The translations under genes were made by a program, and so were the position numbers. From positions 200,760 to 264,759 of the forward strand of contig JANQOU010000008.1 of assembly GCA_028285585.1 (NCBI GenBank): a stretch of DNA of 64,000 nt, given 5' to 3'. The DNA is from Acidimicrobiia bacterium. GTDB taxonomy: Bacteria > Actinomycetota > Acidimicrobiia > Spongiisociales > ZC4RG35. The notes beneath the pieces were generated by a model. It did not search any database, was not told the origin of the DNA, and saw only the letters and a program-made list of their open reading frames with translations. Positions 4,547 to 29,580 of the stretch are shown here, piece by piece (the stretch's first letter is position 1; every line of letters begins with the position of its first letter).

Positions 4547-4567
4547 TGATTGCCTCCTCAAGGCTCC

Positions 4568-10955: not shown

Positions 10956-11007
10956 CGGGTACCTGGCGGAGTAGGCCCGGAATTGGTTTGGTGGTCCATT
11001 CGGCCGT

Positions 11008-13348: not shown

Positions 13349-13400
13349 CGAATTCTGGGGTGGGTGTCCCTCTCTCAACGGTTACCGCCTTACTTGGTTG

Positions 13401-14834: not shown

Positions 14835-14838
14835 CGAT

Positions 14839-15840
14839 TCACTCGCTCGTCCCGCTGGCGGTGGGGGTTTCGCTGGCGCCGAGGATGGCTCTGACACCTT
14901 CTGCCACTTCGAAGGCGACACGCAACGACGACTCAATAGTGAGACCCGCGATGTGGGGTGTGAGAATGAGGTTCGGAACGTCTGCGAACGGTTCAGCGGC
15001 TTCGCAGGACAGCGGCTCGGTTTCGAACACGTCGAGGGCTGCTCCACCGAGTCGACCAGATCGCAGGGCAACGGCCACAGCATGTTGATCGACAATGCCT
15101 CCCCGGGAAGTGTTTACCAGCAACGAACCTGGCTTCATCAGTTGGATCGCTCGTTCGTCGATGAGGTTGTGAGTCTTTGATGTCAAGGGCACGTGGATGC
15201 TGATGGCGTCTGAAGACTCGAGTAGGTCGTCCCAGCCCGACGAGACAGCTTCTTGCCAGCGACTGTCGGCGGCGTCGATCTGCGGATCGTGGGCGGCAAC
15301 CGTCATCCCGAGAGCGGAGGCTCTCTTCGCCACTTCTCTGGCGGTGGCACCGAAGCCGACGAGCCCGAGTCGCTTGCCGGATGCTTCGAAACCGACACTT
15401 TCTCGTCTCGGCCATTCCCCATTGACAACTCGATCGGTGTGACCAAGAGCCGGTCTCCACAGAAGAAGCAGGGCCGCGACGACGTAGTCGGCAACGGACG
15501 TCGCATTCGCCCCAAACGCGGCGCGAACCTGGACATCGGCAGCCTCACAGGCCTCGACGTCGATGTTGTCCAAACCAGCACCTAACCGTCCGACCACCTG
15601 GAGACGCCGGGCCGCCGACAACAACTCGACATCGACCTTCGTCTGATTCCGGACCACCAGCCCCCTGGCCTGCGGCATCAACCGGAGCAACCGAGCGCGA
15701 TCGTTGTACAGAGTCGGGTCGTACACGACAGAGAAATCGTCTACCAGCCCACCAACAGCCTGCTCATCCATGTCTTCGCAGATGATGATCTCGGCCCGAG
15801 AAGGATCGGCTGGCTCGTCGGTGGAGTCTGAGTCGCTCAT
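14839..15840 (-). CDS. D-isomer-specific 2-hydroxyacid dehydrogenase (SerA/PGDH-like)
   Basis: Rossmann motif GLVGFGATAREVA, a catalytic …NTSRGGIVD… region and …TPHIAGLT…, which are hallmarks of the D-2-hydroxyacid dehydrogenase family. Confidence 0.8.
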   Translation of the reverse strand: MSDSDSTDEPADPSRAEIIICEDMDEQAVGGLVDDFSVVYDPTLYNDRARLLRLMPQARGLVVRNQTKVDVELLSAARRLQVVGRLGAGLDNIDVEACEAADVQVRAAFGANATSVADYVVAALLLLWRPALGHTDRVVNGEWPRRESVGFEASGKRLGLVGFGATAREVAKRASALGMTVAAHDPQIDAADSRWQEAVSSGWDDLLESSDAISIHVPLTSKTHNLIDERAIQLMKPGSLLVNTSRGGIVDQHAVAVALRSGRLGGAALDVFETEPLSCEAAEPFADVPNLILTPHIAGLTIESSLRVAFEVAEGVRAILGASETPTASGTSE

Positions 15841-15850
15841 CCGTCTTGCA

Positions 15851-15864
15851 TGTTACATGTAACA
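15851..15864. promoter_or_regulatory. Perfect 14-bp palindrome TGTTACATGTAACA (candidate GntR/FadR-type operator)
   Basis: Seen directly in the 70-bp gap between the MlrC-like stop (15911) and the 2-hydroxyacid dehydrogenase start (15840). GntR-family sites are of the form N-GT-N(x)-AC-N. Confidence 0.45.
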
Positions 15865-15910
15865 GGCCCTCCCGGCGAAAGAACAGGCGTGACTCGGTCT
15901 TGACCGCCTC

Positions 15911-17392
15911 CTAAGTGACGTCGGTGACGGGCTCGAACGGAAAGAGCGGTCTCCGGCGTCTCCGGTACGGAAGATTCTCCATGTCGGCCCGGGTCGAACC
16001 GGGTGTGGCGACCTTAAGGATCGTTGGGCAGTAGGGTGCGTAAGCGGGTATGGGCGCATTCGTCCCTTTGGCCACGATCACATCGAAGTCGGTGGGATCG
16101 AGCCCGCAACTCGTCAGCTGGCCGATGCTGAAAGGCATGACCCGGAGTGAGGTCAGCTGCACGGTGAGACCGTCACACGCGACGATGGCGGTGTGCCCCA
16201 TGTCGAATTCCTGGAGACCGGCATGACGGACAGCCTCCTCAAAGAACTTCCCCTCGTGCAGACTCAGCACGGTCGCGGAGGTCGTGATCGGTGACCCGTG
16301 CAGGTCGTCGGTCTTTGCCCCAACCTCCAGTTTCACCGACTTGCCCACCCCGGCGCTGGCGGCTGCCGCCACGCTCGTGGGGTCGTAGATGGCCACAAAC
16401 CCGCTCTCGATCGGTGATTCCAGGATCCTCTTCGCCAGGATGGTGCCGTCGCCGGCCGAGCCGCCTCCGATGTTGTCCCCGGTGTCGAGCAGGCAAACAC
16501 GCTCCGTCGCCGACGACGCCCGAGATACCGCTTCATCGACACCTACCAGACGTGCCACAAATCGCTCACGCTCGCTCATCAGGGTTGACCCGACACGACG
16601 CGCATGTTCGGTAGCTTCCTGTGGGGAGGCATCTGTGACAACCACCACCGACGCTCCGTTCTCAACCACATCGGCGAACCGGTATCCGAGACAGAAGCTG
16701 GCGCTGAGCACGTCTGGCTCAGAACGCACCTCGTCCATCAACATCCCGATAGACGCACAGGGCTCGACGCGTGTGTCCTGGAGCAAAACGTTGATGGCCA
16801 GTGGGGGAAACACCGCAGCTTGAGTCAGGGCTACTTCCCCCGCGACAGCCCTCAGCATGAGGTGCGCTGCCTCCATGCCCCGGTCGAATGTGTCCAGGTG
16901 GGGATTGGTCCGATACGCCACCAAAGCGTCGGTTGCATCCACCATGTCATTGGACACGTTGGCGTGGGCATCGAGCGTAGCGATGATTGGTATCTGCCCG
17001 ACGGCCGCCCTGATCTGTCGTAACCACCAGCCATCGGCGTCCGGGTGCTCTTCACAGACGGCAGCACCGTGAGCTGCCATCAGCAGCCCGTCGAGCGTGG
17101 GGACGGCACCAATCGCCGTGAGGGCCCGGTCGAGAAGGGCTTCGCAGGCAGCAGATGTGATCTCCCCGCTTGGGGTGGCCGAAGCCGAGAAAAGAGGCAC
17201 CGCTTCTACCGGATTGTCATCCAGACCGGCGAAAAACCCGCCTAGATCGGAGTGCTGACCCGTCCAGCGATCGCGCACACCAGGGCCAGCGTGCATCTCG
17301 AACATCTCAAGGTTCGTACGGGTTGGCACAAAGCTGTTCGATTCGTGCCAGAGACCCAAGACGCCGATCCGGGGGGTTCGGTTGCCGGTCAC
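15911..17392 (-). CDS. MlrC/M81-family metallopeptidase-like protein (DUF1485+DUF1611 architecture)
   Basis: N terminus PRIGVLGLWHESNSF, the hallmark start of the MlrC family. GTG start at 17392 forms a GTGA overlap with the upstream gene's stop. Confidence 0.75.
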   Translation of the reverse strand: MTGNRTPRIGVLGLWHESNSFVPTRTNLEMFEMHAGPGVRDRWTGQHSDLGGFFAGLDDNPVEAVPLFSASATPSGEITSAACEALLDRALTAIGAVPTLDGLLMAAHGAAVCEEHPDADGWWLRQIRAAVGQIPIIATLDAHANVSNDMVDATDALVAYRTNPHLDTFDRGMEAAHLMLRAVAGEVALTQAAVFPPLAINVLLQDTRVEPCASIGMLMDEVRSEPDVLSASFCLGYRFADVVENGASVVVVTDASPQEATEHARRVGSTLMSERERFVARLVGVDEAVSRASSATERVCLLDTGDNIGGGSAGDGTILAKRILESPIESGFVAIYDPTSVAAAASAGVGKSVKLEVGAKTDDLHGSPITTSATVLSLHEGKFFEEAVRHAGLQEFDMGHTAIVACDGLTVQLTSLRVMPFSIGQLTSCGLDPTDFDVIVAKGTNAPIPAYAPYCPTILKVATPGSTRADMENLPYRRRRRPLFPFEPVTDVT

Positions 17393-19287
17393 TTCGAGTC
17401 CGCGAACTCTCTCCCGTAGAAAGCGAAGTACTGCTCCACGGGTTCGTCCTTTCTGGCGCTGCCCCGTGCCATATCTGACGGGTTGGCCCGCCTGGAGTCG
17501 AGCCACGGCGAGTACAGGACTGCACCGAGTCTGGCCGCATGCAGGGCGGTTCGATCGTATTGGAGCCGCTCCGCAGCGTCGGGCCGCGTAGATTGGGAGG
17601 AGATCCCCATCTCCATGTCGGCTACCGCGAACTCGAGGTTGGCGGCAAGGGCCGAGACCATGAGCGCTTCGGCATCATCGGCAGGGTCAACAGATTTCAC
17701 ATCGGCCAGGCAATCTCGATACACCCGGGCGGTATTCTCAGTCACCGACGCATCCTCATATGACCCGAGGAAACCCTTGAAGAAGGTTCCACCGGCGTCT
17801 TCAAACCGCTCGAGAATGGTTGCCATCGTCGACGCCGATCCGGAGAAGCGCGCACTCAGATAGGACTCGATGAACTCCCGATAATCGAGGCTGACGTCCC
17901 AGGACAGCGCCGAGATGAGCTGATGGACGAGCTCATAGGTCAGCCAATCCCCCGGAACCACATACGTTCCGGACCCGAAGGCAGCGACACCGAGAGACCT
18001 ATAGAACGGTATCTCCTTCGACATGAGGTGTGGCAGGAGTACAGGCAACGAGTGCCACGCCATCTTCCGGTAGTACTCATACCAACCGACCTTGCCGGCA
18101 AAGCCGGCGTCTCTCCAGCGTGATAGCAGTGACGGCCACTCTGCATTCCTTGGCTGGTCCGGAGAGAAGATGGGCGCCCCATAGTCCCGATCGAGGGGTG
18201 CGAAGTCGACGATGACATCCTCGTGGTATCCATACTCGGGGTCGGGCGGATCGAGGGCCGGTGTGTATGAGAGAGTGGCGACCGTCACCGGCAGACGGTT
18301 GTTCCTCAGTTCCGCGCACAGCCGGTTGGTTACGTGAGCCTGAGCGTTGCTCATCGTTCCGAACCGGTCGACGGTCGACTCGGCCCACCGGGCGAAGTCG
18401 GGTGGCCACGCCTCGAAGATCGAGACCTCGGGTCGGTCGGCGAGATAATCGACCACGGCGTCGACATATGTCTGAACCGCCTCGGGGTGCTCCGCTTTGA
18501 ACACGGTTGGCGGAGGTTCGCCGGTGGCAGTGGGCTCATCGACTCCGCCGAACCAATCGGGATGGGCAGGTTCGAGATCGGAAGGCTTCAGGAACGACTG
18601 GTACCCGTGCCCGCCGGTTTCGACGGCAATGGCGCGCCTGGCCAACTCGGGTAGGACATGTTCCCGATAGTCGTCCCATCGCACGAGACCCCTCCCTTCG
18701 TCGTCGTAAGGGAAGACCAACGTGTTGCGTCTCTGCTTGGCCATCCAGTCGATAATGGCGACGAGAGCATCGGAGTCGATGCTCCACCCTTCGCCCGCGT
18801 CGGCGCGCCGAATGTCGAAGGACGGCGACTCGGTGACGCTGAGGCCCACATCGAGCGTGTTCGCAGCCGGGATCTTCTCGTGGTGCCCCCGGTAGGTCGG
18901 AAAGCGCGGGGCAAAGAACCGGACTCCCACCTGCTCCAGCAGCCGGTAGGTCGAATACAACACTCCCCGCTCGGACCGCGAGGCCAAAACACCCACCGGG
19001 CTATTCAGATTGATTGAGTAACCATCGGGGTGACGACCACAAAGCTCGACGCTCGCCGACTGGATACCGGCGACCACTTGTTCCGACGACGTCCCTCGAG
19101 GTGCAAGCGCCAACGCAGCAACCGAACCGGGGCCCGACTGATGTTCAGCTATGCCCAACCGCGCCCCCGTGATCAGATAGACGTACTTCTGCAGTTCTTC
19201 GGCGGCGAAGCCCACCGGATCAGCAGGGCTCTGACCCCCTATGGGTGTGATCACAAGTGAGGTTCTGCCTTGGTCGACAAGAAGCAT
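17389..19287 (-). CDS. Large hypothetical protein (632 aa), possibly a glycoside-hydrolase-like/DUF4838-type TIM-barrel
   Basis: Long ORF with coding-like composition that is translationally coupled on both sides. The function call is only a weak resemblance and is low confidence. Confidence 0.6.
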   Translation of the reverse strand: MLLVDQGRTSLVITPIGGQSPADPVGFAAEELQKYVYLITGARLGIAEHQSGPGSVAALALAPRGTSSEQVVAGIQSASVELCGRHPDGYSINLNSPVGVLASRSERGVLYSTYRLLEQVGVRFFAPRFPTYRGHHEKIPAANTLDVGLSVTESPSFDIRRADAGEGWSIDSDALVAIIDWMAKQRRNTLVFPYDDEGRGLVRWDDYREHVLPELARRAIAVETGGHGYQSFLKPSDLEPAHPDWFGGVDEPTATGEPPPTVFKAEHPEAVQTYVDAVVDYLADRPEVSIFEAWPPDFARWAESTVDRFGTMSNAQAHVTNRLCAELRNNRLPVTVATLSYTPALDPPDPEYGYHEDVIVDFAPLDRDYGAPIFSPDQPRNAEWPSLLSRWRDAGFAGKVGWYEYYRKMAWHSLPVLLPHLMSKEIPFYRSLGVAAFGSGTYVVPGDWLTYELVHQLISALSWDVSLDYREFIESYLSARFSGSASTMATILERFEDAGGTFFKGFLGSYEDASVTENTARVYRDCLADVKSVDPADDAEALMVSALAANLEFAVADMEMGISSQSTRPDAAERLQYDRTALHAARLGAVLYSPWLDSRRANPSDMARGSARKDEPVEQYFAFYGREFADSK

Positions 19288-20063
19288 CAGCTCGTCCCGG
19301 CATGGACGAGGAAGCCCGTCCCAGGCTCGACACCAGTGATGTTGTTAGGAATCCAATCGACAGCAGAGGCATCCAGGTAAGACTCAACCCAAAGGTCCCA
19401 ATGGATGGGCACAACTGTGTCGGCGTTCATGAGCCCCACGGCGTCCTCGAACTCCCCCTGGTTCAGATAGACCTTGTTCCCGAGAAGCGTCTCGCCGAAA
19501 TTCAGGAAGGCCAAGGTCACGTCGAGATCACCAACCTGTGAGAACACGTCGGGGTCGAACCCGGTGTCACCGAAGTGGGCCACCCTGGCCGTCTGAGACT
19601 CGACAACGTATGAGACAGCTTCGATGGCGAAGTCGTCGGCGCTGCGCAACACATTCACCACGAACGCTCCGACCTCAAGCCGATCTCCAGCACGCACCGG
19701 GCATACGTCGTCGATGCCTCCGGCTCTCAAAGCCTTGGCAGCTTCCCCGGGTGCGAACACCGCGGTCGAAGAACCGTTGCTCAAAGCGCGAACCGCTTCG
19801 GGGTCGCAGTGATCGCGATGCTCGTGGGTGATCAAAAAAACGTGGGCCTGGTGGGCGTCATCGGGTCCAATCGCCGACACTGCTCGCCGGGTGATCTTCG
19901 GATTGGCTGCCTGACCAAAGAAGGGGTCGATCCACAGATATTGATTGAGACTGCGAACGACGACCATCGAGCCTCCGGCCCAGAACATAAAGTCCCCCGA
20001 GATCGGGTTGCCGGGATCCAGCATCGGAGGGCCTGACTCCCTGGGAACCACCTCGATCGTCAC
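19287..20063 (-). CDS. MBL-fold metallo-hydrolase (UlaG-like)
   Basis: HxHxDH motif as LITHEHRDHCD. Translationally coupled to its neighbours. Confidence 0.8.
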   Translation of the reverse strand: MTIEVVPRESGPPMLDPGNPISGDFMFWAGGSMVVVRSLNQYLWIDPFFGQAANPKITRRAVSAIGPDDAHQAHVFLITHEHRDHCDPEAVRALSNGSSTAVFAPGEAAKALRAGGIDDVCPVRAGDRLEVGAFVVNVLRSADDFAIEAVSYVVESQTARVAHFGDTGFDPDVFSQVGDLDVTLAFLNFGETLLGNKVYLNQGEFEDAVGLMNADTVVPIHWDLWVESYLDASAVDWIPNNITGVEPGTGFLVHAGTS

Positions 20064-20956
20064 AGTATCGAATTCCTTTCCAGCACAATCTCGAGCTCGC
20101 GACGCTCCTCATCCGACAGAGGGGTCATCGGGTGACGGGGATCTCCTCCGACTAGCCCGGCAAGGTCCATGGCCGCCTTCGTGTATGGGATGAATGCCAG
20201 CTCGCCACGGCTCGATCGGGGTTGGAGCAGTCGTCGGTATGCCATGAGGCGTCGGTTGAGGTCGCGAGCTGTCTCGAGGTCTCCGGCCTCGACCGCGTCA
20301 CTGAGTTGCTTGATGAACCCGGGAGCAAACGCGGCAGTCGCCGGCATACATCCAGCAGGACCCGCCGCCAGGGCGAAGTACAGGGGGTCCTCAGCCCCGG
20401 CGATCACGGCCAACTCGGAGCCAAGGATGTCGACGATGTAAGAGAATCGAACCATGTCCTGACCCGCGTACTTGTACCCGATGACGTACTCGAACTCGGG
20501 TACGCGGCCGATGGCCAGAATATCGATCGCGTCGGCGATCGATGGGTTCTCATAGACAATGAACGGAGTGTGATCGGCGTTGAGCATCCTCAGCTCGTTG
20601 AGGACCTCATCGACTGATCCTGCCGAGGGTTTGACCATCAGCGCGTCCGCCATCCCGTCTCGGACCAGTTTGCACGAAGCACGCCAGGTTTCGGGGCGGG
20701 ATTCGGTCCCGAGCACAACAACGCCGGAATCGCCCACCGTGCCGCGTATCACCTCGAGCGACTGGACGAGCTCGTCCCAGGACAAGGAGAAAGGCTCCGC
20801 CATCGTCCCTCCGACCACGAAAGCGGACACCTGGCTGTCGGCCAGCGCAACCGCGTTCGCTTCCACGCCGTCGAAATCGATCGTCTGATGAGTGTCGCGG
20901 TGAAACGGAGTGGTCAACGCCGCCATCACCCCGCACAGCGCCGATCGGTCTATCAC
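20060..20956 (-). CDS. DapA/N-acetylneuraminate-lyase-family class I aldolase
   Basis: ~298 aa TIM-barrel aldolase family with an N-terminal GVMAALTTPF… and DHDPS-like spacing. ATGA overlaps at both ends. Confidence 0.65.
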   Translation of the reverse strand: MIDRSALCGVMAALTTPFHRDTHQTIDFDGVEANAVALADSQVSAFVVGGTMAEPFSLSWDELVQSLEVIRGTVGDSGVVVLGTESRPETWRASCKLVRDGMADALMVKPSAGSVDEVLNELRMLNADHTPFIVYENPSIADAIDILAIGRVPEFEYVIGYKYAGQDMVRFSYIVDILGSELAVIAGAEDPLYFALAAGPAGCMPATAAFAPGFIKQLSDAVEAGDLETARDLNRRLMAYRRLLQPRSSRGELAFIPYTKAAMDLAGLVGGDPRHPMTPLSDEERRELEIVLERNSIL

Positions 20957-22086
20957 AGGTCAGGCCGTTGGGGTGTGGGACCAGTGTGCGCGGCGGGGTT
21001 TTGCAGGTGGTAGGCAAGCCGATCGAGAATGATGTCGGCTTCCCCCACGTCCACCGGACTCGGGTTCACCAGAACCAGGTCGCCTTCGCTGGCGACGGCA
21101 ATCCGCTCAAAGTGCCATAGCCGGTTCGCCAGTTCTTCCGACGAGAGCGGGATGCGATCAAAGTCGATCCTTACCGCGGCCCGCGGACACGGCTGACCGG
21201 CCACATTGGGGAAGTCCCGGAAGGCCTCGACCCCCGGAATGGCATCCCACGAGTCGACCCACATCTCGACCATCTTCTCGCGCTGGGCGATCGTTTCATC
21301 CTCGTCCTCGAGGAGGTAGTCCTCAATCGCCGCGACCAAGCCAGCCATCACCTCCGGACTCACCTTGAGAGCACGGGCGAGCGTTTGATGTGGTGGACCG
21401 ATGGCGCGGCAAGCCTCAACCAGATCACGGCGGCCCACGAGGAATCCGCTGTTCTGGGGGCCTCTCACCTCCTTGCCGCCACTAAACGCTGCTGCGTCTG
21501 CCCCGAGTTCGGTTGTGTACCTCCACAGATTTGACGCCGGAGGTAGCTGGGCGGCGGCATCAACGAGAACGGGTATTCCCCTCGGTTTGCACACGGTGAC
21601 AACTTCATCGAGGGTCAGACTTGAGGCCGAGTCATCACGAACCGGGACAAAGAGGTAAGCACGCGCGCCACGTTCGATCGCTTCGACGAGCTGACCGACA
21701 CTGGTTCCGTTGTCATCACCGATCTCAACCAGACTCGCTCCCACCAGTCGAACCACAGCATCGTACGGGGTGCGCTGGGAGCGCTGAATCAACACCCGGA
21801 ATCCGCCTCTGTCCATCGGAAGCTGAGCCGTGGCCGCAGCATCTCCATCCGACATGAGAGCGAGGAATGCGATGGCGAGAGCCGCCGCTGCCCCGTTCGC
21901 GATGTAGGCACCGTCGTTTCGGGTGAGAGCTGCGATGTGGTCACCGAGTTCGGCCTGCATCGCGAACACGTCGTGGTACTCCGTGCCCGCGGGAGCCATG
22001 GCGTCGAGGGTTCGTTTCCTCATCCTCGAACCGCCAAGGAACGTCGACCAGGAATGGGCGTTGATGACCGGTTGGCCTTGGGGCAC
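20953..22086 (-). CDS. DgaE/SelA-like PLP-dependent enzyme (D-glucosaminate-6-phosphate ammonia-lyase family)
   Basis: N terminus …VINAHSWSTFLGGSRM… matches the …IINAAGTLTRLGGS… start of the DgaE/SelA-like family. Has a PLP-fold body. Confidence 0.65.
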   Translation of the reverse strand: MPQGQPVINAHSWSTFLGGSRMRKRTLDAMAPAGTEYHDVFAMQAELGDHIAALTRNDGAYIANGAAAALAIAFLALMSDGDAAATAQLPMDRGGFRVLIQRSQRTPYDAVVRLVGASLVEIGDDNGTSVGQLVEAIERGARAYLFVPVRDDSASSLTLDEVVTVCKPRGIPVLVDAAAQLPPASNLWRYTTELGADAAAFSGGKEVRGPQNSGFLVGRRDLVEACRAIGPPHQTLARALKVSPEVMAGLVAAIEDYLLEDEDETIAQREKMVEMWVDSWDAIPGVEAFRDFPNVAGQPCPRAAVRIDFDRIPLSSEELANRLWHFERIAVASEGDLVLVNPSPVDVGEADIILDRLAYHLQNPAAHTGPTPQRPDL

Positions 22087-22118
22087 CGATCCCTTGGTGA
22101 CTGAAGCTTCTTGGGTGC

Positions 22119-22595
22119 TCAGCTCTGATTCCTGACTTCGGCTATGACCTCGAGTTCAACAGGGATGTTGAAAGGGAGGCTGGCCATCCCCAGGGCGGCA
22201 CGCGTGTGCTGTCCGCGCTCCCCGAGAACCTCGAGCAGCAGTGACGATGCTCCGTCGATGACGGCCGGTTGCTTGGTGAATTCGGGACCGGCGTTCACCC
22301 AGCCCGTGAGTCTGACGATGCGCTCGATCGCATCCAGGCTCCCCAACAGATCCCTGAGAGCACCAAGGCAATTGAGTGCGGAGATCCAGGCAGCGTCCTG
22401 ACCCTGTTCGATCGTCAGCTCGGACCCCACCTTGCCTATGAAGATATGCCTGCCGTCCCAGTACGGCCCGAAACCAGAGGTGACCGCAAGACTCCCGGTA
22501 AGCACTGCCGTGGTGAAGAGGCTCTCCCGCTCGTCGGGCGGGGGCAGATCCACCCCCAGCCGGTGTCTGCGGTCTGCCGTATCGACGCTGCTCAC
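22119..22595 (-). CDS. RidA/YjgF/TdcF-family reactive-intermediate deaminase
   Basis: RidA-like core (…GKVGSELT…MASLPFNIPVELEVIAEV). Proposed GTG start at 22595, with a GGGAGG ribosome-binding site 4 nt upstream and a GTGA overlap with the upstream stop. Confidence 0.7.
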   Translation of the reverse strand: MSSVDTADRRHRLGVDLPPPDERESLFTTAVLTGSLAVTSGFGPYWDGRHIFIGKVGSELTIEQGQDAAWISALNCLGALRDLLGSLDAIERIVRLTGWVNAGPEFTKQPAVIDGASSLLLEVLGERGQHTRAALGMASLPFNIPVELEVIAEVRNQS

Positions 22596-23602
22596 GACGC
22601 CTCCCTCAGCCAATCCCGCCACTCACGTCCCGGTGATCTATCGGCCAGCGGAACGTCGAGGTGTCGTTCCGCGCGGTTGTATTCGCCGACTGACGCAACG
22701 ACCCTCGCTACATCCTCGTCGTCGATGCCGAGTTGATGGGGTCGCCACAGCACTCCGGCTCCGTCGAGAACCGTTAGAGGCCTCGCAACCGACCTTCCCC
22801 TGAGGAGGTGGGCAACGACGATCCCCAGCGCAACGGCCTCCCCGTGGACAAATTTGCGGCCCGTCACCCTCTCGAGATTCCATGCGAAAAGGTGCTCATA
22901 TCCTGCGCCGAGCGGCCCGCCGGACGACTCCATCAGGCGGACGCTCTCGTACAGGAGACGGAGTGTTTCGAGGCATTGAGCCTCGTCGGATGGGTCGTAG
23001 GCTCTCGCCAGACCCGCCAGGGCATCCACCAAGTCCTCGACGAGGGACGAATGGGTAGAGATCTCTCGGTCGTCTTCTTCACCTGCCTGGGTGTCGATCC
23101 AGTCGAGCAAGGCGGTCTCGACCGCCAAGACGTCGGCGAGACCGGCAGCGTTGATCCGACGCGGAGCGGTGGTGAGGACCGCCAGATCGAGGATCACCAG
23201 CCTGGGGTCGGCCCGATGCACCTCACCAGCCCGGCCGCTCTCGTCACGCTCACGCATCGAGGATGTGAAGATCGAGTTCGTCGAGGTCACTGTTGGAACT
23301 AGGACGAGATCGAACCCCGTCTCCGAGGCGACGAGTTTCGCCCAGTCGAGAGCCGCACCGCCCCCAAAACCAACGACGGTCGCTTCTGGATCTGAGTCGC
23401 TGGTGCGGCCGGCCGGCCTCTCCCCCGCGTTGAGGTTGATGCTCGATGGTATTCGAGACAGCTGATCGGCAAGGGCAGTTCGAGCACCAGATTCGCTGAC
23501 GATGATCAGTCGCCGCTCTCGTCTAAGAGCATCGACAAGGATGTCATGACCGACATCGAGCCAGCCCGACATCGCATCGACCCACGGTGGAAGGGGGTTC
23601 AT
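22592..23602 (-). CDS. Iron-containing alcohol dehydrogenase / dehydroquinate-synthase-like enzyme (G1PDH/AraM-like)
   Basis: NAD-binding glycine motif VVGFGGGAALDWAKLVA and a DHQS-like fold length. Confidence 0.65.
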   Translation of the reverse strand: MNPLPPWVDAMSGWLDVGHDILVDALRRERRLIIVSESGARTALADQLSRIPSSINLNAGERPAGRTSDSDPEATVVGFGGGAALDWAKLVASETGFDLVLVPTVTSTNSIFTSSMRERDESGRAGEVHRADPRLVILDLAVLTTAPRRINAAGLADVLAVETALLDWIDTQAGEEDDREISTHSSLVEDLVDALAGLARAYDPSDEAQCLETLRLLYESVRLMESSGGPLGAGYEHLFAWNLERVTGRKFVHGEAVALGIVVAHLLRGRSVARPLTVLDGAGVLWRPHQLGIDDEDVARVVASVGEYNRAERHLDVPLADRSPGREWRDWLREAS

Positions 23603-24789
23603 GTTTCACCTCTCGAAGCAGCGACCGCCGCCTGAACGAGCCTGTCGGCGGATCCGCGATGGACCGGCGAATCGAACCCGAAGTAGATGTGTGACTCCTC
23701 GACTTCATACCCACCCTCGTCATACGCGTGTTCGGGTGCCACATAGCCGAGGTAGCCGTCGGTGAGTGTCGCCGGCATCACGTCCCCAATCTCTCCCTCG
23801 ATCCGCTGGCCGACTTCGCTGAACAGTTCGGCGGGAGTGAGTAGAAGCCTCCATGGTCCAACACCAACGAACGACACGCGCGCGACACCAAGATCCGCAC
23901 CGCTGGTGGACTCGATCGGAGTCACGCTTTGCCCTGTGGCCAATCTGGCATGTGGGGCAGTCGAGATCTCGAGCGCGGCGCGCACAGCGACTCGACCTAC
24001 CTTCTCACCCGCACCACGGACCCTGTCGGGGTCGAAGGTCCAGTCGAATCGTCCCGATTCAGTGACGTGGCAAGAGCGGACGTCGCCACAATAGCCAAGA
24101 AGGAACACGGCGACGCTTCCCGGGAACTCCTCCTCGATCAGGTCCCTGACCACGCCGACGTAGTCAGGGCCGATCAGCGTTGATTCTCCGGCCGTCGTGG
24201 GGTGGCATCCGTAGGAGACCACCACTCCTCTTGGTGACCCATCCTCGGTGTCGAAGCGGGCGACCTTGACTCGACGGTCGACCGGACCATCGAAGTTGGC
24301 GTGTGGTGGCTTCGCGACAAGGCCGTCGGGACCGGGAAGCCTGCGGTTCACTCCCAGGTCGCACGAGCCTTCTCCGACGCCAAGGTGAACAGGAAGCTGG
24401 GCAGCCAAGGCACCAACAGCAGCCTCGGACGCGGACGCGAGCAGCGTGTCGATGTACGCGGGCTCACCGGTGGAACCGTCGGCGGTGATGAATGGAGGCA
24501 CCTGCGGCGCGGTGTGGGTGTGAGTCGATGCGACGTGGATCCGATTCGTTGCGACGCCAGATGCCTCGGACACCCCACCCTGGATTCGCGAGACGGTCGC
24601 AGACGATAGGCCGAGTAGGTCGAACACGATGACCACTACCTGGTCGGTGCCGTCGGATATCGCAATCGCGCGACAGTCGATATCCGCCTCCACACCGGTG
24701 GAAATCCTCTGCGTTGGCCAGCCACCGAGAGGCAATCCGGGAGCGGATGGGGTGATGCTCACCCGGCTGAATCCGGCGGTGACAGTCAT
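23599..24789 (-). CDS. Neutral/alkaline ceramidase-like hydrolase (N-terminal catalytic domain family)
   Basis: Motif HVASTHTHTAPQ resembles the …SATHTHSGPGG… zinc-site motif of neutral ceramidases. N terminus …RVSITPSAPG…. Confidence 0.55.
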   Translation of the reverse strand: MTVTAGFSRVSITPSAPGLPLGGWPTQRISTGVEADIDCRAIAISDGTDQVVVIVFDLLGLSSATVSRIQGGVSEASGVATNRIHVASTHTHTAPQVPPFITADGSTGEPAYIDTLLASASEAAVGALAAQLPVHLGVGEGSCDLGVNRRLPGPDGLVAKPPHANFDGPVDRRVKVARFDTEDGSPRGVVVSYGCHPTTAGESTLIGPDYVGVVRDLIEEEFPGSVAVFLLGYCGDVRSCHVTESGRFDWTFDPDRVRGAGEKVGRVAVRAALEISTAPHARLATGQSVTPIESTSGADLGVARVSFVGVGPWRLLLTPAELFSEVGQRIEGEIGDVMPATLTDGYLGYVAPEHAYDEGGYEVEESHIYFGFDSPVHRGSADRLVQAAVAASRGET

Positions 24790-25462
24790 GCCGACACCTC
24801 AACGCTTACATCGATAGCCGCCTGATAGGACCGAAGTTTGCGCAGTTCCAATTCGCCGGTAGATGCTGCGTCGGCCACGCCAAGCAGTGGCGCACCGATA
24901 GCGAAGGTGCCAAAACCTTCAGCCGCAAGCCCCCGCACGTAATTGGGTTCGATGCCACCGCTCAGAATCAACGGAGGGCTCCCAAACGGGCGGGTCATCG
25001 TGTCGAGATGGTCGGCTCCGAAGATTCCCGCGGGAAAGACCTTCAACATGTCTGCTCCAGCCGTCAGCGCAGTGTCGATCTCGGTCGGAGTCAATACTCC
25101 CGGCACGGCGACGAGGCCCTCGGCGCGCAGTCGTTGGATGACATCCGGGTTGGCTCCGGGAGCAACACCGAACGTCGCTCCCGACCGGGATGCCTCAGAG
25201 GCCTCCTCCACGGTGCGAACGGTGCCCAAACCAACGGGGAACTCGGCGCCGAACTCGTCGGCGAGCTCACGGACAGCGGCGAAGGCACCTTCGGATTCGG
25301 CGGTGACTTCCAGGGCCAGGATGTGCCGTTCGGATACCAGGACTTCGGCAGCGCGCAAGATAGCCCTCCGCTCCAACCCGCGGAACACCACGACGATGCC
25401 CGGACGGTTCAGAGTTTCGATGACGGGTGTCGGGTCAGGATGCTGGTGTTCGACTGTCACCC
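24786..25462 (-). CDS. eda: KDPG/KHG aldolase (Eda family)
   Basis: Eda-family TIM barrel (…LKVFPAG…LILSGGI…). GTG start at 25462 in a GTGA overlap with the upstream permease stop. Confidence 0.7.
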
Positions 25463-26311
25463 CTTCAAACCTCCCTCCAGAAGCCCTCTGCTGAACCACC
25501 TTTGGAAGATGATGTAGATGGCGAACGCCGGAATGAACATCACCAGGGCTGCCGCGGCGGCGACCGGAAACGAGAAGTCGGGGTCAGACGCACTAACAGT
25601 GAATGCTTTGATGCCCAGCGCCATCGGCTGAACGTCGATGCCGGCGAAAGTGAAGGCAAAAATGAACTCACCCCAAGCCGGTATGAACGTGAACAGGGCT
25701 ACGACGACCGCTCCACCTCGGGCGAGAGGGAACATCACCCAGCGGAAGATCTGCCAGCGGTTGGCCCCATCGACAACCGCAGCTTCGATCATTTCACCCG
25801 GTATGCCATCGAAGATCGTCCTCATGATGAAAGCGCCCAGGGACACGAACCAAGCCACATACACCAACACGAGTCCTTGGTAGGTGTCGAGCCAACCCAG
25901 GAGCAGCAGCTCCTGGTAGAGAGCGGCGATCGCGAGAACGGGGGGCAAGAACAGAGTCAGTGTGAGCAAGCCAAACAAGATCTTGTGGCCCGGAAAGTCG
26001 CTTCGCGACAGCGCGTACCCGGACAGCGCTGCCACGACGACAACTCCGATCACCGTCAGCCCTGTGACGATCACACTGTCGAGGTAGTAGCTCGCCATCT
26101 CAGGGACCCGCTGAGTCATCTCTCTGAAGTTGTCCAGCGTGAGGCTCGTCGGGAAAGGCTGGAACTGCTGTGTCTCAGGTCGAAAGGCGATCGATGCGAA
26201 CCAGACGAACGGAAACAAAACAGCAAAACAGCCCAGCACGAGTGCCAGGGTTCGAGTGCGGAGAGCTCCGGACCTCTTCCAGCGATGACCGGTGGTTGCC
26301 ATCCTGCTCAT
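25457..26311 (-). CDS. Carbohydrate ABC transporter permease (MalG/UgpE-like)
   Basis: 6 TM helices and an EAA loop region (…AAVVDGANRWQIFRWVMFPLARG…). ATGA overlap with the upstream permease. Confidence 0.8.
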   Translation of the reverse strand: MSRMATTGHRWKRSGALRTRTLALVLGCFAVLFPFVWFASIAFRPETQQFQPFPTSLTLDNFREMTQRVPEMASYYLDSVIVTGLTVIGVVVVAALSGYALSRSDFPGHKILFGLLTLTLFLPPVLAIAALYQELLLLGWLDTYQGLVLVYVAWFVSLGAFIMRTIFDGIPGEMIEAAVVDGANRWQIFRWVMFPLARGGAVVVALFTFIPAWGEFIFAFTFAGIDVQPMALGIKAFTVSASDPDFSFPVAAAAALVMFIPAFAIYIIFQRWFSRGLLEGGLKG

Positions 26312-27276
26312 TCGACCTCGGTCCTTACAATCTTCCAGATGAGCCATGCGAGAACGAGAGTGATGAGGCCGAGCATCAGGTACCAGGCGCTAGCCCGGCC
26401 GACTCTGTCCTGGTAGAAGAAGATCTCGAACGCCTCCAACCCATATGTTGTGGTGGCGTCAATTGGCCCGCCGCCCGTCATGAAGAGTGGCTCCGCAGTC
26501 AGCGCGAAGACTTTGAGTCTCAGGATTAGAACAATGGCGAGAACCGGCCGAAGAAGCGGCATCTGGACTGACCAGAAGGTCCTCCAACCGGAGGCACCGT
26601 CGACCCTTGCGGCATCCAGCAGACTTCTGGGGATCGCCGCAAGTCCGACCAGGAACAGGATCAGGACCTCCCCGAACAGCCTCCACGTGGTCATCGCAGC
26701 CATCGAGGGCAAGGCGAGATTGGGGTCGCCAAGGAAGTTGATCGGACCGATGAAGGGAATGGCTCCGAGGACCGACCGACTCAAGCCTACTTGGGGGTCG
26801 AGCATCCACACCCACATTTGAAAGACGATCGCCGCGGGAAGAACCACTGGGAGGTAGTAGATGATGCGGTAGACAGTGGCAGACCGTCGCTCACCGATCC
26901 TGTCGAGGGCTACCGCGATGGACAACGCGATGATGATGCTGATCGGCACGTACATCAGGAAGAACAGTGCCGACCGCGAAAGTGAGCTCCACATACGGTC
27001 GTCCTGGAACCAATGGACGTAGTTGTCGAAGCCGACGAACTCGTTGCGCTGTTGGACCACTGAGACTCTGAAGAACGAGTTGTAGATCGTCCTTACGATC
27101 GGATAGAAGACAAACGCGCCCATCACGAGCAGAAGGGGCACGGTGAAGGGGAAGCTGGTCCCCTTTCCCATTTGAGATGGACGACTGCTGGACTCGCGGA
27201 GACCTGACTGCCGCTTGTTGATGGTGTCGGTCATCTCACTCTCAGAAGGATGCGGAGTAGTGCGGCCCGTCAACAC
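26308..27276 (-). CDS. Carbohydrate ABC transporter permease (MalF/UgpA-like); start 27234 or 27276
   Basis: TM topology and an EAA motif (…DAARVDGASGWRTFWSVQMPLLRP…). Confidence 0.8.
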   Translation of the reverse strand: MLTGRTTPHPSESEMTDTINKRQSGLRESSSRPSQMGKGTSFPFTVPLLLVMGAFVFYPIVRTIYNSFFRVSVVQQRNEFVGFDNYVHWFQDDRMWSSLSRSALFFLMYVPISIIIALSIAVALDRIGERRSATVYRIIYYLPVVLPAAIVFQMWVWMLDPQVGLSRSVLGAIPFIGPINFLGDPNLALPSMAAMTTWRLFGEVLILFLVGLAAIPRSLLDAARVDGASGWRTFWSVQMPLLRPVLAIVLILRLKVFALTAEPLFMTGGGPIDATTTYGLEAFEIFFYQDRVGRASAWYLMLGLITLVLAWLIWKIVRTEVE

Positions 27277-27313
27277 ACAGGCCGCACCACTCTGGAGGAG
27301 GAATGGCTATCTG

Positions 27314-28693
27314 TTATCCGTTGAAGTCGGCGAACGCCTCCTGGAGGCGAGCCAGCATTGCGTCTCTGGTGTCTTCGGCCGAGATGTCCTCGATGATCAT
27401 ACGCTCGACTTCCTCCCGGAATATGCCCTGCTCGAAACCGAGCCAATAGGGATTGACCGGAAGCCCGGTGGAGACTTCGAGGGCGTCGAAAGTGGCCTGG
27501 GCCCACTCCGGCATCACGATGTCGTCCCGGGTCGAATACCAAGGTGTGGCACCGAAGTTGTCGATGGTCCACTGGATCGACACCGGGTCCCACATGACGC
27601 CGTGCATGAGGAAGTCGACAGCCTCTTGAGCGTGAGCCGCTTCCTTCTGAATCACTGCAGCCGAATTCCAGAACAGTGTCCCGGGATATGCATTCTCGGG
27701 GTTGGCTCCAAGGCCAATCACGCCTGGGTTAACGCCGGCGGTGATGGCCCGACCGACCTGCTTCTCCCAGTACATGATCATCGCGGCCTCGTTTGCCTGG
27801 AACGCCAGCGAAGAACCAAGCGGGGTCAGCACGTTCTCGGGGAAGAACTGAGACAGGTCCTTGATCAGCTGCAGCGCTTCCACAGCAGCAGGCTGGTCGA
27901 GGTTGAACAGTCCCTCTTCAGTGAACACGTCTTCTGTCAGCGTGACCATGAGGGGGAGGAAGAGTCGATGCGAGAACATGAAGTCTGCACCGAATCCGCT
28001 AACTCCCGGCATTGCTGCCTCAACCGCGGTCGCCGTTTCGATCAACTCGTCCCACGTCTTCGGCTGCTCCGGTGAGCCGGTGACCTCTTCGAGGAAGTCC
28101 TTCCTCCAGATGAGGAGCACGGTTGCGAGTGCCATTGGCAGGCTGTACGAGCTCCCATCGGAGTACGTGTTTGCCAGTCGAACTGACTCAGGCAGATCGT
28201 CGATCGCACCATCCGGATACAAGTCGTCGAGAGGCCTCAGCGCGCCTGCCTCGACGAGTGGTGCCACTTCGATCCATGGCGTGACCCCCACAATCGCGTC
28301 GAAAGAAGCCTCGCCATTCTGAGCTTCCAGTGCGTAACGCTGAACTGCGGCGGGTGCGTCGGGCAGATCATCAGCAGCGAGCACAGTGATCTCGATATCG
28401 ATGTTCGGATTCGCTGCCTCCCACCTCTCGACAGCGTTCTCGAACGGGTGCGTCGACATCATGTAGTCGTAGACGCCGAGCTTGACGATCACGGGTTCAG
28501 ATGAACCGGCCGTCGTGTCTGTCGCACCCAAGGTGGTGGTCGTATCTCTCGACGGCCCCGTGGTGTCGGTACCAGCTTCAGAGCTGGCGGTGCTCCCGTT
28601 GCCCTCCCCGTCGGAGGAGCCGCACGCTGCCGCCGTCAAGGAGAAGACCAAGAGCAGGACCACCATTCGGACGGTCCTAGTGCCAAATAACAT
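27314..28693 (-). CDS. Carbohydrate-type ABC transporter substrate-binding lipoprotein (family 1)
   Basis: Signal peptide with lipobox (LTAAACGSS), a Thr/Ser-rich linker and an SBP_bac_1-like body. First gene of the long minus-strand operon. Confidence 0.8.
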   Translation of the reverse strand: MLFGTRTVRMVVLLLVFSLTAAACGSSDGEGNGSTASSEAGTDTTGPSRDTTTTLGATDTTAGSSEPVIVKLGVYDYMMSTHPFENAVERWEAANPNIDIEITVLAADDLPDAPAAVQRYALEAQNGEASFDAIVGVTPWIEVAPLVEAGALRPLDDLYPDGAIDDLPESVRLANTYSDGSSYSLPMALATVLLIWRKDFLEEVTGSPEQPKTWDELIETATAVEAAMPGVSGFGADFMFSHRLFLPLMVTLTEDVFTEEGLFNLDQPAAVEALQLIKDLSQFFPENVLTPLGSSLAFQANEAAMIMYWEKQVGRAITAGVNPGVIGLGANPENAYPGTLFWNSAAVIQKEAAHAQEAVDFLMHGVMWDPVSIQWTIDNFGATPWYSTRDDIVMPEWAQATFDALEVSTGLPVNPYWLGFEQGIFREEVERMIIEDISAEDTRDAMLARLQEAFADFNG

Positions 28694-28741: not shown

Positions 28742-28756
28742 GTGCATGTAACATAC
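28742..28756. promoter_or_regulatory. Near-copy of the 15.85-kb palindrome (GTGCATGTAACATAC) in the divergent regulator/operon promoter region
   Basis: Shares the CATGTAACA core and a TGTGCA half-site with TGTTACATGTAACA. Lies between the binding-protein-gene start (28693) and the GntR start (28936). Confidence 0.4.
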
Positions 28757-28935
28757 TTTAGGCCCACTCAGGAGTCAAGGGGGCAAAACCGCCTATTTGT
28801 GATGGGATTTCTGAACAGTCTCTTCGATCGGATTCCTTCGAGATGTGACGCCCTGTCGAATAGGGTATGCAACATGAGAATGGATCGAGGACGCTCGTGA
28901 CCTCTGCCGGGCCCGACGGTCAACCGCGGCAGATC

Positions 28936-29580
28936 ATGTCTGTCAGCCTCAAGGACCAGGTACTTGCCGGTCTGCGTGCAGGCCTCCTCAAGGGAGACTT
29001 CAAGCCAGGAAAGATCTACAAGATGGGGGAAGTCGGAGAGCAGTTTGGCGCATCCAGGACGCCCGTGAGGGAAGCTGTCCTGGAGCTCGAGTCACGAGGC
29101 GTCGTCGAGATAATCCGTAGCGTGGGGTTCCGTGTGACGGAGCCCACCCCAGACGACATCCAGGACATGTGGGAGGTCCGGGCGATCGTGGAAGTACCGG
29201 CAATGGAATCGCTGTCCGGCCGACTAGACGACTCGACGTTGGCCAAACTGTGGTCGCTGATCGACGACGTCGAGAAAGCAGCACGCTCCGATGACCTGGC
29301 AAGCTATCTCGCCAAAGACGCCCAGCTACATGACGCGCTCTACGAGGAGCTCTCCAACCGCCATCTCGCTGCGACCATTAGAGACCTTCGCGATTCGCAG
29401 CGGGTACCGAGCCTGGGAGCGCGACGAGCGTCCAGCGATTTGATCGCTCGCAATGAGGAGCACCGTGCATTGGTTGCGGCCATCGCATCCGGGGACACCG
29501 AGAAGATCCACAATCTGACTAGAGCCCACCTATTGGTGAACTACCACAAGTGGCAGAGTCAGAGCGATCACCGGGACTAG
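28936..29580 (+). CDS. GntR-family transcriptional regulator (FadR/FCD subfamily)
   Basis: N-terminal winged HTH (…LAGLRAGLLKGDFKPGKIYKMGEVGEQFGASRTPVREAV…) and a C-terminal all-helical FCD-like domain. The ATG at 28936 is preferred over the TTG at 28867. Confidence 0.8.
   Translation: MSVSLKDQVLAGLRAGLLKGDFKPGKIYKMGEVGEQFGASRTPVREAVLELESRGVVEIIRSVGFRVTEPTPDDIQDMWEVRAIVEVPAMESLSGRLDDSTLAKLWSLIDDVEKAARSDDLASYLAKDAQLHDALYEELSNRHLAATIRDLRDSQRVPSLGARRASSDLIARNEEHRALVAAIASGDTEKIHNLTRAHLLVNYHKWQSQSDHRD

Follow-up and report, generated by a model that had tools for sequence, protein, structure and literature searches.

We analyzed a 64-kb window (the whole stretch of 64,000 nucleotides, whose numbering is used throughout) of contig JANQOU010000008.1 from an Acidimicrobiia bacterium and found that positions 28693-15911 hold a genuine, tightly packed 12-gene operon. 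In our best model, to which we assign a probability of roughly 0.5 as a whole, this GntR-repressed operon serves to take up a small N-acetyl-amino-sugar glycoside and to degrade it to pyruvate with no phosphorylation step. The glycoside would probably carry a β-linked N-acetylhexosamine (HexNAc) together with an N-acyl-2-amino-2-deoxy-aldonic acid or its lactone. The families, folds, conserved residues, synteny and operator palindrome on which the model is built were observed, and from them we infer the substrates, the order of the steps and every function that goes beyond a family assignment.

A translationally coupled 12-gene operon

Twelve consecutive co-directional open reading frames (ORFs) fill the region on the minus strand, listed here in the direction of transcription; they encode proteins of an ATP-binding cassette (ABC) importer, class I aldolases, including one of the 2-keto-3-deoxy-6-phosphogluconate (KDPG)/2-keto-4-hydroxyglutarate (KHG) type, a pyridoxal-phosphate (PLP) lyase, several hydrolases and an oxidoreductase.

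27314..28693, minus strand: CUT1-type solute-binding lipoprotein (SBP_bac_1, 86 bits)
26308..27234, minus strand: ABC permease 1 (BPD_transp_1)
25457..26311, minus strand: ABC permease 2 (BPD_transp_1; ATGA overlap with permease 1)
24786..25460, minus strand: KDPG/KHG-type class I aldolase, Eda-like (PF01081, 93 bits)
23599..24789, minus strand: short neutral-ceramidase-like Zn amidohydrolase, catalytic domain only (fold and Ceramidase_alk match)
22592..23602, minus strand: Fe-ADH_2 glycerol-(1-phosphate)-dehydrogenase-like NAD(P) oxidoreductase (PF13685)
22119..22595, minus strand: YjgF_endoribonc/Rid-family protein (PF14588, 69 bits)
20953..22086, minus strand: DgaE-family fold-type I PLP lyase (TIGR01437, E 1e-45)
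20060..20956, minus strand: DHDPS/NAL-family class I aldolase (PF00701, 105 bits)
19287..20063, minus strand: metallo-beta-lactamase (MBL)-fold hydrolase (Lactamase_B_2, 55 bits)
17389..19287, minus strand: cytoplasmic DUF4838 glycoside hydrolase, GH163/GH185-related (PF16126)
15911..17392, minus strand: M81 (MlrC-like) Zn metallohydrolase (DUF1485, 276 bits; MlrC_C, 174 bits)

Every junction was recomputed. Eight of the eleven are 4-nt ATGA or GTGA overlaps (permease 1/permease 2, permease 2/Eda-like, Eda-like/ceramidase-like, ceramidase-like/Fe-ADH_2, Fe-ADH_2/YjgF, DgaE-like/DHDPS, DHDPS/MBL and DUF4838/MlrC-like), and the MBL/DUF4838 junction is a 1-nt TGATG overlap. The other two are short gaps: 32 nt between the YjgF and DgaE-like genes, and 79 nt from the binding-protein gene to the ATG of permease 1 at 27234, or 37 nt to an upstream GTG; the ATG start gives a 308-aa permease that matches its homologue on the metagenome contig L108 from end to end. 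A preliminary description made from the letters of the window (the sequence-only reading) had treated these genes as one translationally coupled catabolic unit, a view borne out both by the junctions and by the recurrence of the gene order on contigs L108 and L001, described below. Pfam and NCBIfam also agreed with its family calls for the binding protein and permeases and for the Eda, DgaE-like, RidA-type, DHDPS, MBL, MlrC-like and Fe-ADH_2 products.

The DgaE-like lyase lacks most of the proposed phosphate site

The structure of Salmonella DgaE, 7LC0, was matched by the lyase at E 5e-32; the scores of the lyase with the NCBIfam models are far below the cutoffs (136 bits against 600 for NF047797 and 156 bits against 385 for TIGR01437). 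A bona fide SelA, the alternative identity that the sequence-only reading had named, was rejected: TIGR00474 reached 39 bits (cutoff 268) with a match limited to the PLP core, and the solved SelA structures matched the lyase at E 3e-5 compared with 5e-32 for DgaE. We compared its residues with those of DgaE in a pairwise alignment and in a 121-sequence alignment that included its 120 nearest homologues. In DgaE, a Lys forms the Schiff base, Arg226 holds the α-carboxylate, His162 anchors a loop and His163 is the proton donor; His163 is strictly conserved in DGL, and Arg301, Arg332 and Arg346 have been proposed to bind the 6-phosphate (PMC9529869). The PLP Lys (DgaE chain residue 213, in an SG(A/G)K motif) is kept in the lyase and in 120/120 homologues, Arg226 in the lyase and 86/120 homologues, and Arg301 of the phosphate cluster is kept in the lyase. 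His162 is replaced by Arg and His163 by Asp, position 332 holds Ala or Ser and position 346 holds Ser, and Arg occurs at these last two positions in none of the 120 homologues. Because Arg332 and Arg346 are absent and the operon has no kinase or phosphotransferase system (PTS), the substrate is probably unphosphorylated, a glucosaminate/2-keto-3-deoxygluconate (KDG)-type intermediate and not KDPG. We propose that the enzyme would act as a 2-amino-2-deoxy-aldonate ammonia-lyase.

The gene before it encodes the Rid-family protein, in which we take the Arg within HTRAALGMASLP to stand at the position of the catalytic Arg of Escherichia coli RidA. By analogy, this protein is a putative enamine/imine deaminase. 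Such a partner would make sense because the lyase lacks His163, and the DgaE H163A mutant gives off an enamine rather than an imine (PMC9529869).

The Salmonella dgaABCDEF operon and the present one have in common the PLP family of the lyase, its PLP Lys and Arg226, and an Eda/DgaF-type aldolase. Salmonella imports through a mannose-type PTS with phosphorylation, whereas the present operon has no PTS and eight further genes, and its lyase lacks His162/His163 and Arg332/Arg346 and falls far short of the DgaE cutoffs. The match to the D-glucosaminate route drawn by the sequence-only reading thus stands at the level of families; at the level of these four residues it does not, and KDPG is an unlikely intermediate.

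A sugar-type importer and no kinase

The N terminus of the binding protein ends in AAAC and is lipoprotein-like, and the closest solved structures are maltose/oligosaccharide binders (E 1e-10). No operon product matched a kinase or an ABC ATPase in Pfam or NCBIfam, neither the operon nor the adjacent dehydrogenase/aldehyde dehydrogenase unit contains a kinase or PTS, and a MalK-type ATPase query against the whole window returned only the Opp-type ATPases at 490-2482. These searches sustain the earlier description of a CUT1-type importer without its own ATPase in an operon without a kinase, and the importer presumably relies on a shared ATPase encoded elsewhere.

A second import cluster lies at 490-8298 on the minus strand. 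It encodes an Opp/Dpp-type ABC system (SBP_bac_5, two permeases and two ATPases), an Amidohydro_1 protein that resembles Xaa-Pro dipeptidases with a score below cutoff, and a protein of 293 aa in which two stretches are of the Rid/L-PSP type, and so presents another pairing of an amide hydrolase with the Rid family.

A cytoplasmic DUF4838 glycosidase

The 632-aa protein, left as a protein of unknown function by the sequence-only reading, is a DUF4838 glycosidase: PF16126 scored 58.1 bits against a gathering cutoff of 26.6 over residues 133-487, Pfam placed a GH67N-like domain at the N terminus, and no signal peptide was found. An AlphaFold2 model built with 20 homologues (predicted local distance difference test, pLDDT, 85.5) has the N-terminal alpha/beta domain and TIM barrel that make up GH20/GH84-like enzymes, and the top 36 Protein Data Bank (PDB) matches in Foldseek were all GH84 O-GlcNAcases or GH20 β-hexosaminidases (E 1e-8 to 4e-6). 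DUF4838 is the catalytic domain of two β-GlcNAcase families, GH163, represented by the endo-β-GlcNAcase BT1035, and GH185, represented by the cytoplasmic 6-sulfo-β-GlcNAcase Sp_0475, with a substrate-assisted mechanism; the catalytic positions of Sp_0475 are Q174, H227, D309 and Y436, and R633 binds sulfate (PMC10570127). In the subfamily of the 632-aa protein, His227, Asp297 (in a WPPD motif), Tyr405 and Gly167 are invariant and Glu166 is at least 90% conserved, which makes these residues candidates for catalysis only.

With BT1035 and Sp_0475, the 632-aa protein has in common the PF16126 catalytic domain and the GH20/GH84-like fold, a likeness of domain and fold and not of compared sequences, and like the cytoplasmic GH185 cluster it has no signal peptide; its gene context is amino-sugar-acid catabolism, in contrast to the N-glycan and sulfated-mucin use of GH163 and GH185. 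The structural model predicts that the protein is most likely a β-N-acetylhexosaminidase-like glycosidase, which strengthens the amino-sugar reading of the operon. At a separate haloarchaeal locus (L109, 7520-11932), a DUF4838 homologue with 40% identity directly follows a sulfatase and a GNAT acetyltransferase gene, a context that fits the 6-sulfo-GlcNAcase activity described for GH185.

Two putative amide hydrolases

The ceramidase-like call of the sequence-only reading was marginal in Pfam, where the N-terminal region of Ceramidase_alk reached 30.7 bits, just under the gathering score of 32.1, and was confirmed by fold. An AlphaFold2 model built with 17 homologues (pLDDT 93) found 2ZWS, 2ZXC and 4WGK as its best Foldseek matches at E 1e-27 to 1e-24 (2ZWS at E 1.4e-27 with a query-normalized TM-score, TMq, of 0.82; 4WGK at E 9e-25); the target-normalized score (TMt) is only ~0.5 because the 630-670-aa targets carry an extra domain. 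The protein thus has the catalytic-domain fold of neutral ceramidases (PF04734; 2ZWS, 4WGK; TMq ~0.8), but it measures 396 aa compared with ~650 aa, without a C-terminal domain or signal peptide, and its sequence identity to them is 14-17%. A secreted lipid ceramidase was rejected, since this protein is a cytoplasmic form with no signal peptide and only a single domain; its gene context points to an N-acyl sugar acid in solution as the substrate, unlike the ceramide of the neutral enzymes. H90, H92, R150, H196, E321 and Y349 are invariant across 17 family members and may correspond to the residues with which the Pseudomonas aeruginosa ceramidase binds Zn and carries out catalysis. Exhaustive HMMER searches gave 10,567 representative relatives at E <= 1e-3, 91 at E <= 1e-30 and ~10 at E <= 1e-50, so the immediate subfamily is rare, and a scan of metagenome contigs with its alignment yielded no confirmed match. 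On the strength of the modeled fold we propose that it may be an N-deacylase.

The M81 protein matched the PDB entries 3IUU (E 7e-44) and 7YLQ (E 9e-39). The roles of the Zn ligands, of E70 and of the substrate-cavity residues W59 and F67 have been described for microcystinase MlrC (PMC9982164). The protein shares with MlrC (7YLQ) the two-domain M81 architecture, and in an alignment to 7YLQ the Zn ligands E39, D167, H169 and H191 are kept, as is H133; it differs at E70, which is Gly, and in the substrate cavity, where Ala replaces W59 and Trp replaces F67, and no mlrA or mlrB genes are present. These changes, together with an NCBIfam MlrC (NF041767) score of 128 bits against a cutoff of 999, led us to reject a bona fide microcystinase; the protein is probably catalytically active as a metallohydrolase, on some other substrate.

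Conservation and variant clusters

No close relative of the DgaE-like protein was found in a scan of 185,579 GTDB species representatives, and the operon proteins are all singletons at 90% identity. A second full copy was found on two contigs of one ENA metagenome, L108 and L001, which together rebuild the 12-gene order with its divergent GntR gene. On L108, identities to the window are 76% for GntR, 85% for the binding protein, 86% (308/308 aa) and 84% for the permeases, 46% for the Eda-like aldolase, ~60% for a split ceramidase-like protein and 57% for Fe-ADH_2. L001 runs from the ceramidase-like gene through the MlrC-like gene with the order kept and 52-71% identity, after which come unrelated convergent genes; its Rid-family protein is 71% identical to that of the window, compared with 42% for those of the loci L088 and L031. 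Because both the order and the divergent regulator recur, the gene string is more than chance, and the association of ceramidase-like, DgaE-like and MlrC-like genes that the sequence-only reading had suggested looking for is present in this copy as well. Across the pair, the transporter (84-86%) and the regulator (76%) are far more conserved than the enzymes (46-71%). The ceramidase-like gene of L108 (5014-6205) is split into ORFs of 170 and 238 aa on a contig labeled with 2x coverage, either through a sequencing error or as a pseudogene.

Looser assemblies carry parts of the same set. The loci L088 and L089 have a ceramidase-like gene 39% identical to that of the window. The order in L088 is Opp-type ABC, SASA, DHDPS, SGL lactonase, ceramidase-like, Fe-ADH_2, Ala_racemase_N/D-ser_dehydrat, YjgF, GFO_IDH_MocA and ROK, so that the ceramidase-like, Fe-ADH_2 and YjgF genes form the core that is kept and the ceramidase-like protein is the sole amidase. 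From the family assignments, L088 is a case of putative non-orthologous displacement, with an OngC-family fold-type III lyase and an SGL lactonase instead of the DgaE-like and MBL enzymes. The loci L002-L004 combine 51%-identical DgaE-like genes with D-aminoacylase-type amidohydrolases, RidA, SDR and CUT1 ABC genes, and L002 additionally has DHDPS, 2-hydroxyacid dehydrogenase and aldehyde dehydrogenase genes. L088 and L002-L004 back the general idea, put forward in the sequence-only reading, that an N-acylated amino-sugar(-acid) conjugate undergoes amide cleavage, then deamination and lastly aldol cleavage. In L003 (4043-5476) and L004 (1314-2747), a SAVED-domain gene of the defense-system effector type lies ~5 kb from the DgaE-like gene.

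DUF4838 alone is not a pathway marker, since among homologues at 80 GTDB loci only those of one Actinomycetota metagenome-assembled genome (MAG), Dino_bin11, have operon partners. At its locus L031, a DUF4838 protein with NPCBM and LamG domains occurs with DHDPS, Fe-ADH_2, YjgF and Eda genes, and at L012 DUF4838 stands beside DgaE-like, MBL and Ldh_2 genes; NPCBM carbohydrate-binding domains are carried by the Actinomycetota-MAG DUF4838 homologues. A 484-aa protein of L031 was considered as a ceramidase-like candidate and rejected (hhalign probability 0.2). Next to the DgaE-like and MBL genes of L012, a 234-aa ORF (8699-9403) encodes nothing but the GH67N-like N-terminal domain found in DUF4838 proteins; it may be a gene remnant.

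Aldolases, MBL hydrolase and Fe-ADH_2

The Eda-like aldolase scored 109 bits with TIGR01182, below the cutoff of 156, and an alignment to solved aldolases revealed its E-x-T and LKxFPA (Schiff-base Lys) motifs. The DHDPS-type aldolase reached no NCBIfam equivalog, including the NanA model (45 bits against a cutoff of 281), and its GYKYAG Lys and YENP motifs are readable. For the MBL enzyme, which has a HEHRDH motif, the NCBIfam L-ascorbate-6-phosphate lactonase gave a weak match (E 7.5e-12), and by analogy we propose that it may be a sugar-acid lactonase; the SGL lactonase holds the equivalent role in L088, and an MBL homologue adjoins the DgaE-like and Ldh_2 genes in L012. The best NCBIfam match of the Fe-ADH_2 protein was glycerol-1-phosphate dehydrogenase (G1PDH; 94 bits, E 1e-26), followed by glycerol dehydrogenase (60 bits), both below cutoff. 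Its subfamily motif LGAGxEHLFAWNLExVTGRxFxHGE and its GGG motif are kept in L001, L088 and L031, and the gene always adjoins a ceramidase-like or YjgF gene. A scan of metagenome contigs with the Fe-ADH_2 alignment was swamped by GGGxxxDxAK and returned only distant glycerol-dehydrogenase-like loci.

Promoter-like site, probable operator and a probable regulon extension

The following elements lie around and within the operon.

28867..29580, plus strand: divergent GntR/FCD-family transcription regulator (Pfam GntR 47 bits, FCD 72 bits)
28746..28778, minus strand: promoter-like site TTGACT-17-TATGTT (promoter scan)
27260-27287, minus strand: inverted repeat GTGCGGCC-N12-GGCCGCAC with an 8-bp stem, in the gap between the binding-protein and permease 1 genes (read from the sequence)
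15850..15865: two overlapping copies of ATGTWACAT, one exact and one with 1 mismatch, in the 70-nt gap between the MlrC-like gene and the next gene
13401..15840, minus strand: D-2-hydroxyacid dehydrogenase (15840-14839) and aldehyde dehydrogenase (ALDH; 14834-13401) genes, probable regulon extension (Pfam, NCBIfam, operator copy upstream)

The σ70-like promoter match precedes the first operon gene by 57 nt, and the palindrome ATGTWACAT (28746-28754) overlaps the -10 region of this match. Only two exact copies occur in the 64 kb, both in the non-coding gaps that bound the operon, compared with ~0.1 expected by an estimate from base composition; the second, at 15850, is overlapped by the 1-mismatch copy that starts at 15857. 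A further copy with 1 mismatch (ATGCAACAT, 28867-28875) spans the start codon of the GntR gene and may point to autoregulation. The 19-nt block AAAGTATGTTACATGCACA, which contains the palindrome, is identical in L108, although the spacer around it has diverged; a second block conserved between the two spacers spans the ribosome-binding site. No copy was found 3' of the MlrC gene in L001. From this distribution the palindrome is the probable GntR operator. The hairpin at 27260-27287 may stabilize or attenuate the transcript and so raise the ratio of binding protein to permease.

Because the palindrome recurs before the next gene at 15840, the regulon probably reaches past 15911, with a second regulated promoter before the dehydrogenase/ALDH pair; the alternative that it ends at 15911 was rejected on account of this copy. 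Pfam and NCBIfam describe the two products as PGDH-like and as an SSADH-like ALDH, respectively. In L002, homologues with 40-41% identity are found close to the DgaE-like gene, and the pair is absent after the MlrC gene in L001. A threonine synthase gene (12173-13378, minus strand; NCBIfam PRK08197, 452 bits, cutoff 303) begins 22 nt after the ALDH gene; its product has a Cys-rich N-terminal stretch, and it may or may not belong to the same regulated unit. The next ORF, of 385 aa at 10952-12109, gave no family match.

Proposed pathway and its relation to the ong pathway

In the proposed pathway, the CUT1 ABC system would import a disaccharide-sized compound with an ATPase from elsewhere, the cytoplasmic DUF4838 enzyme would cut the β-HexNAc linkage, the MBL-fold enzyme would open the aldonolactone, and the ceramidase-like Zn amidase would take off the N-acyl group; the M81/MlrC-like protein might also deacylate or might remove a second amide-linked substituent. 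The unphosphorylated D-α-amino-β-hydroxy acid would then undergo α,β-elimination by the DgaE-like PLP enzyme, and the YjgF/Rid protein would hydrolyze the released enamine/imine to a 2-keto-3-deoxy-aldonate and NH3. The DHDPS-type and/or Eda-type class I aldolases would yield pyruvate and an aldehyde, to be reduced by Fe-ADH_2 or oxidized by the downstream ALDH/2-hydroxyacid dehydrogenase pair.

This sequence of reactions resembles the experimentally validated ong pathway by which Pseudoalteromonas prydzensis uses C1-oxidized chitooligosaccharides and GlcNAc1A, and in which a GH20 enzyme, a D-aminoacylase and a PLP deaminase, with RidA essential, lead to KDG; deacetylation and deamination act on unphosphorylated compounds, and D-Ser and D-Thr are further substrates of OngC-type enzymes (Jiang et al. 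2022, PMC9537276). For natronoarchaea, a related genome-based prediction has DgaE homologues together with proteins of the RutC family (Rid superfamily) inside chitinase gene clusters (PMC12343721). The operon and the ong cluster have in common a β-HexNAc-ase, N-deacylation without phosphorylation, PLP-dependent deamination with a Rid partner and control by a repressor. The glycosidase is a periplasmic GH20 enzyme (OngA) in ong but a cytoplasmic DUF4838 protein here; the deacylase is a D-aminoacylase of the Amidohydro_3 family (OngB) there and ceramidase-like and/or M81 here; the lyase is fold-type III (OngC) there and fold-type I, DgaE-like here; and uptake is by TonB receptors and an SSS symporter there, by a CUT1 ABC system here. 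The ong cluster has the kinase KdgK, the present operon has none, and two aldolases, the MBL enzyme and Fe-ADH_2 are extras of the latter. Homologues of OngA, OngB, OngC and KdgK are not in the operon. Since only the Rid-family protein (OngD) is common at the family level, the operon, judged by its protein families, works like the ong cluster but is no member of it.

Our literature search found nothing that describes the operon's enzyme combination. The statement of the sequence-only reading that this is not a described pathway therefore holds for the enzyme set and fails for the reaction logic, which has been published as the ong pathway for GlcNAc1A (PMC9537276). Because the step logic is that of ong, the most concrete substrate candidates are C1-oxidized chitooligosaccharides, GlcNAc-GlcNAc1A among them, as a guess by analogy; other N-acyl amino-sugar acids are possible.

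Several points weigh against the pathway as drawn. Full copies of the operon number two only. The DgaE phosphate site comes from a manually docked model (PMC9529869), and the alignment of the lyase with DgaE is only moderately confident around residues 332-346. Those parts of the window that were scanned showed neither a chitinase nor a lytic polysaccharide monooxygenase (LPMO). The DHDPS of the window has no detectable tblastn match to those of L088 or L031, so the aldolase step is not orthologously conserved, and distant DgaE-like and ceramidase-like relatives also adjoin peptide-type transporters and peptidases. What the MlrC-like, Fe-ADH_2 and MBL proteins do, and why there are two aldolases, is guesswork, and the tie of every operon protein to the substrate is deduced.

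Alternative explanations

The classical D-glucosaminate-6-phosphate route, with a kinase encoded elsewhere, a DgaE-like lyase that forms KDPG and an Eda-like aldolase that cleaves it to pyruvate and glyceraldehyde-3-phosphate, would fit the DgaE family of the lyase (7LC0, E 5e-32), the KDPG/KHG aldolase and the retained phosphate-cluster Arg301. We consider it unlikely, since Arg332 and Arg346 are absent, His162 and His163 are replaced, the DgaE equivalog stays at 136 bits against 600, and neither the operon nor the adjacent unit has a kinase or PTS; a DHDPS-type second aldolase and a co-regulated ALDH suit an unphosphorylated aldehyde product, and the corresponding ong steps likewise proceed without phosphate. 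An oxidative route for sialic or nonulosonic acids or for ManNAc also strikes us as improbable. There, a NanA-like DHDPS would free an N-acyl-hexosamine, which would be oxidized to the lactone or aldonate, deacylated, deaminated and cleaved by the Eda-type aldolase, with two amidases for di-N-acyl sugars. This would account for both the two aldolases and the two amidases, and the core of L088 does adjoin SASA (sialate O-acetylesterase-like), DHDPS, ROK, GFO_IDH_MocA and SGL lactonase genes, but the DHDPS of the window reaches only 45 of the 281 bits required by NanA and does not match that of L088. There is no sialidase, the glycosidase being HexNAc-ase-like, the operon contains no sugar 1-dehydrogenase of a usual family, and our literature search found no description of such a route.

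We give little credence to the idea that the substrate is a peptide or D-amino-acid conjugate, such as a cell-wall peptide or a cyanopeptide-like compound, whose unusual amides would be cut by the MlrC-like and ceramidase-like proteins and whose D-Ser/D-Thr-type residues would be deaminated by the DgaE-like/Rid pair, with the sugar enzymes as accessories. DgaE-like relatives do stand beside Opp-type transporters, an M14 peptidase, an MR_MLE enzyme and amidohydrolases, and ceramidase-like relatives beside Opp-type transporters and an amidase, and OngC-type enzymes also accept D-Ser and D-Thr. However, the importer is of the sugar-type CUT1 class, a glycoside hydrolase, a lactonase-like MBL enzyme and two pyruvate aldolases are fixed in the conserved operon, and E70 and the substrate-binding residues of MlrC are not kept. 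MBL-fold phosphodiesterases exist, and one could also imagine that glycerophosphodiester or teichoic-acid fragments are used: a UgpB-like binding protein would import a GlcNAc-substituted glycerol phosphate, an MBL phosphodiesterase would cleave it, DUF4838 would remove GlcNAc, and the G1PDH-like protein would oxidize sn-glycerol-1-phosphate. The best NCBIfam match of Fe-ADH_2 (G1PDH, E 1e-26) and the presence of UgpB among the weak PDB matches of the binding protein (E 5e-3) point that way. These supporting matches are all weak, the lyase, the Rid protein, the two aldolases and the two amidases would go unexplained, and in L088 Fe-ADH_2 sits with a sugar dehydrogenase and a lactonase and with no phosphodiesterase, so that we regard this explanation as very improbable indeed.

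Significance of the proposed kinase-free amino-sugar-acid route

Going back to the kinase-free breakdown of an N-acetyl-amino-sugar glycoside, a more far-reaching form of it would have the operon encode a complete phosphorylation-independent route for HexNAc-β-(N-acyl-aminoaldonate) compounds in Gram-positive-type bacteria, with undescribed activities in four families. Jointly, DUF4838 would act on a substrate with an aldonic-acid aglycone, the single-domain ceramidase-like protein would be an N-acyl-aminoaldonate deacylase, the DgaE-like enzyme would be a lyase for unphosphorylated glucosaminate-type acids that needs a Rid protein because it has no His163 as proton donor, and the M81 protein would have a non-peptide amide substrate. 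We hold this fuller version to be rather doubtful and offer it tentatively.

If this version is true, the operon would represent an oxidative pathway for chitin or amino sugars that is the second of its kind and was assembled independently. If the best model is right, bacteria outside the marine Gammaproteobacteria would have built an "N-acyl-D-amino-acid-like" route for amino-sugar acids, compounds that include the products of LPMO action on chitin, from unrelated enzyme families. The operon would then give first functions to the short ceramidase-like amidases, which are a rare subfamily, to a large clade of DgaE-like proteins without the phosphate site, to a clade of cytoplasmic DUF4838 glycosidases and to a non-microcystinase M81 protein, and it would provide candidate enzymes on which the processing of KDG-type intermediates without a kinase can be tested. 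Its conserved operator would be an easy handle for the discovery of the inducer.

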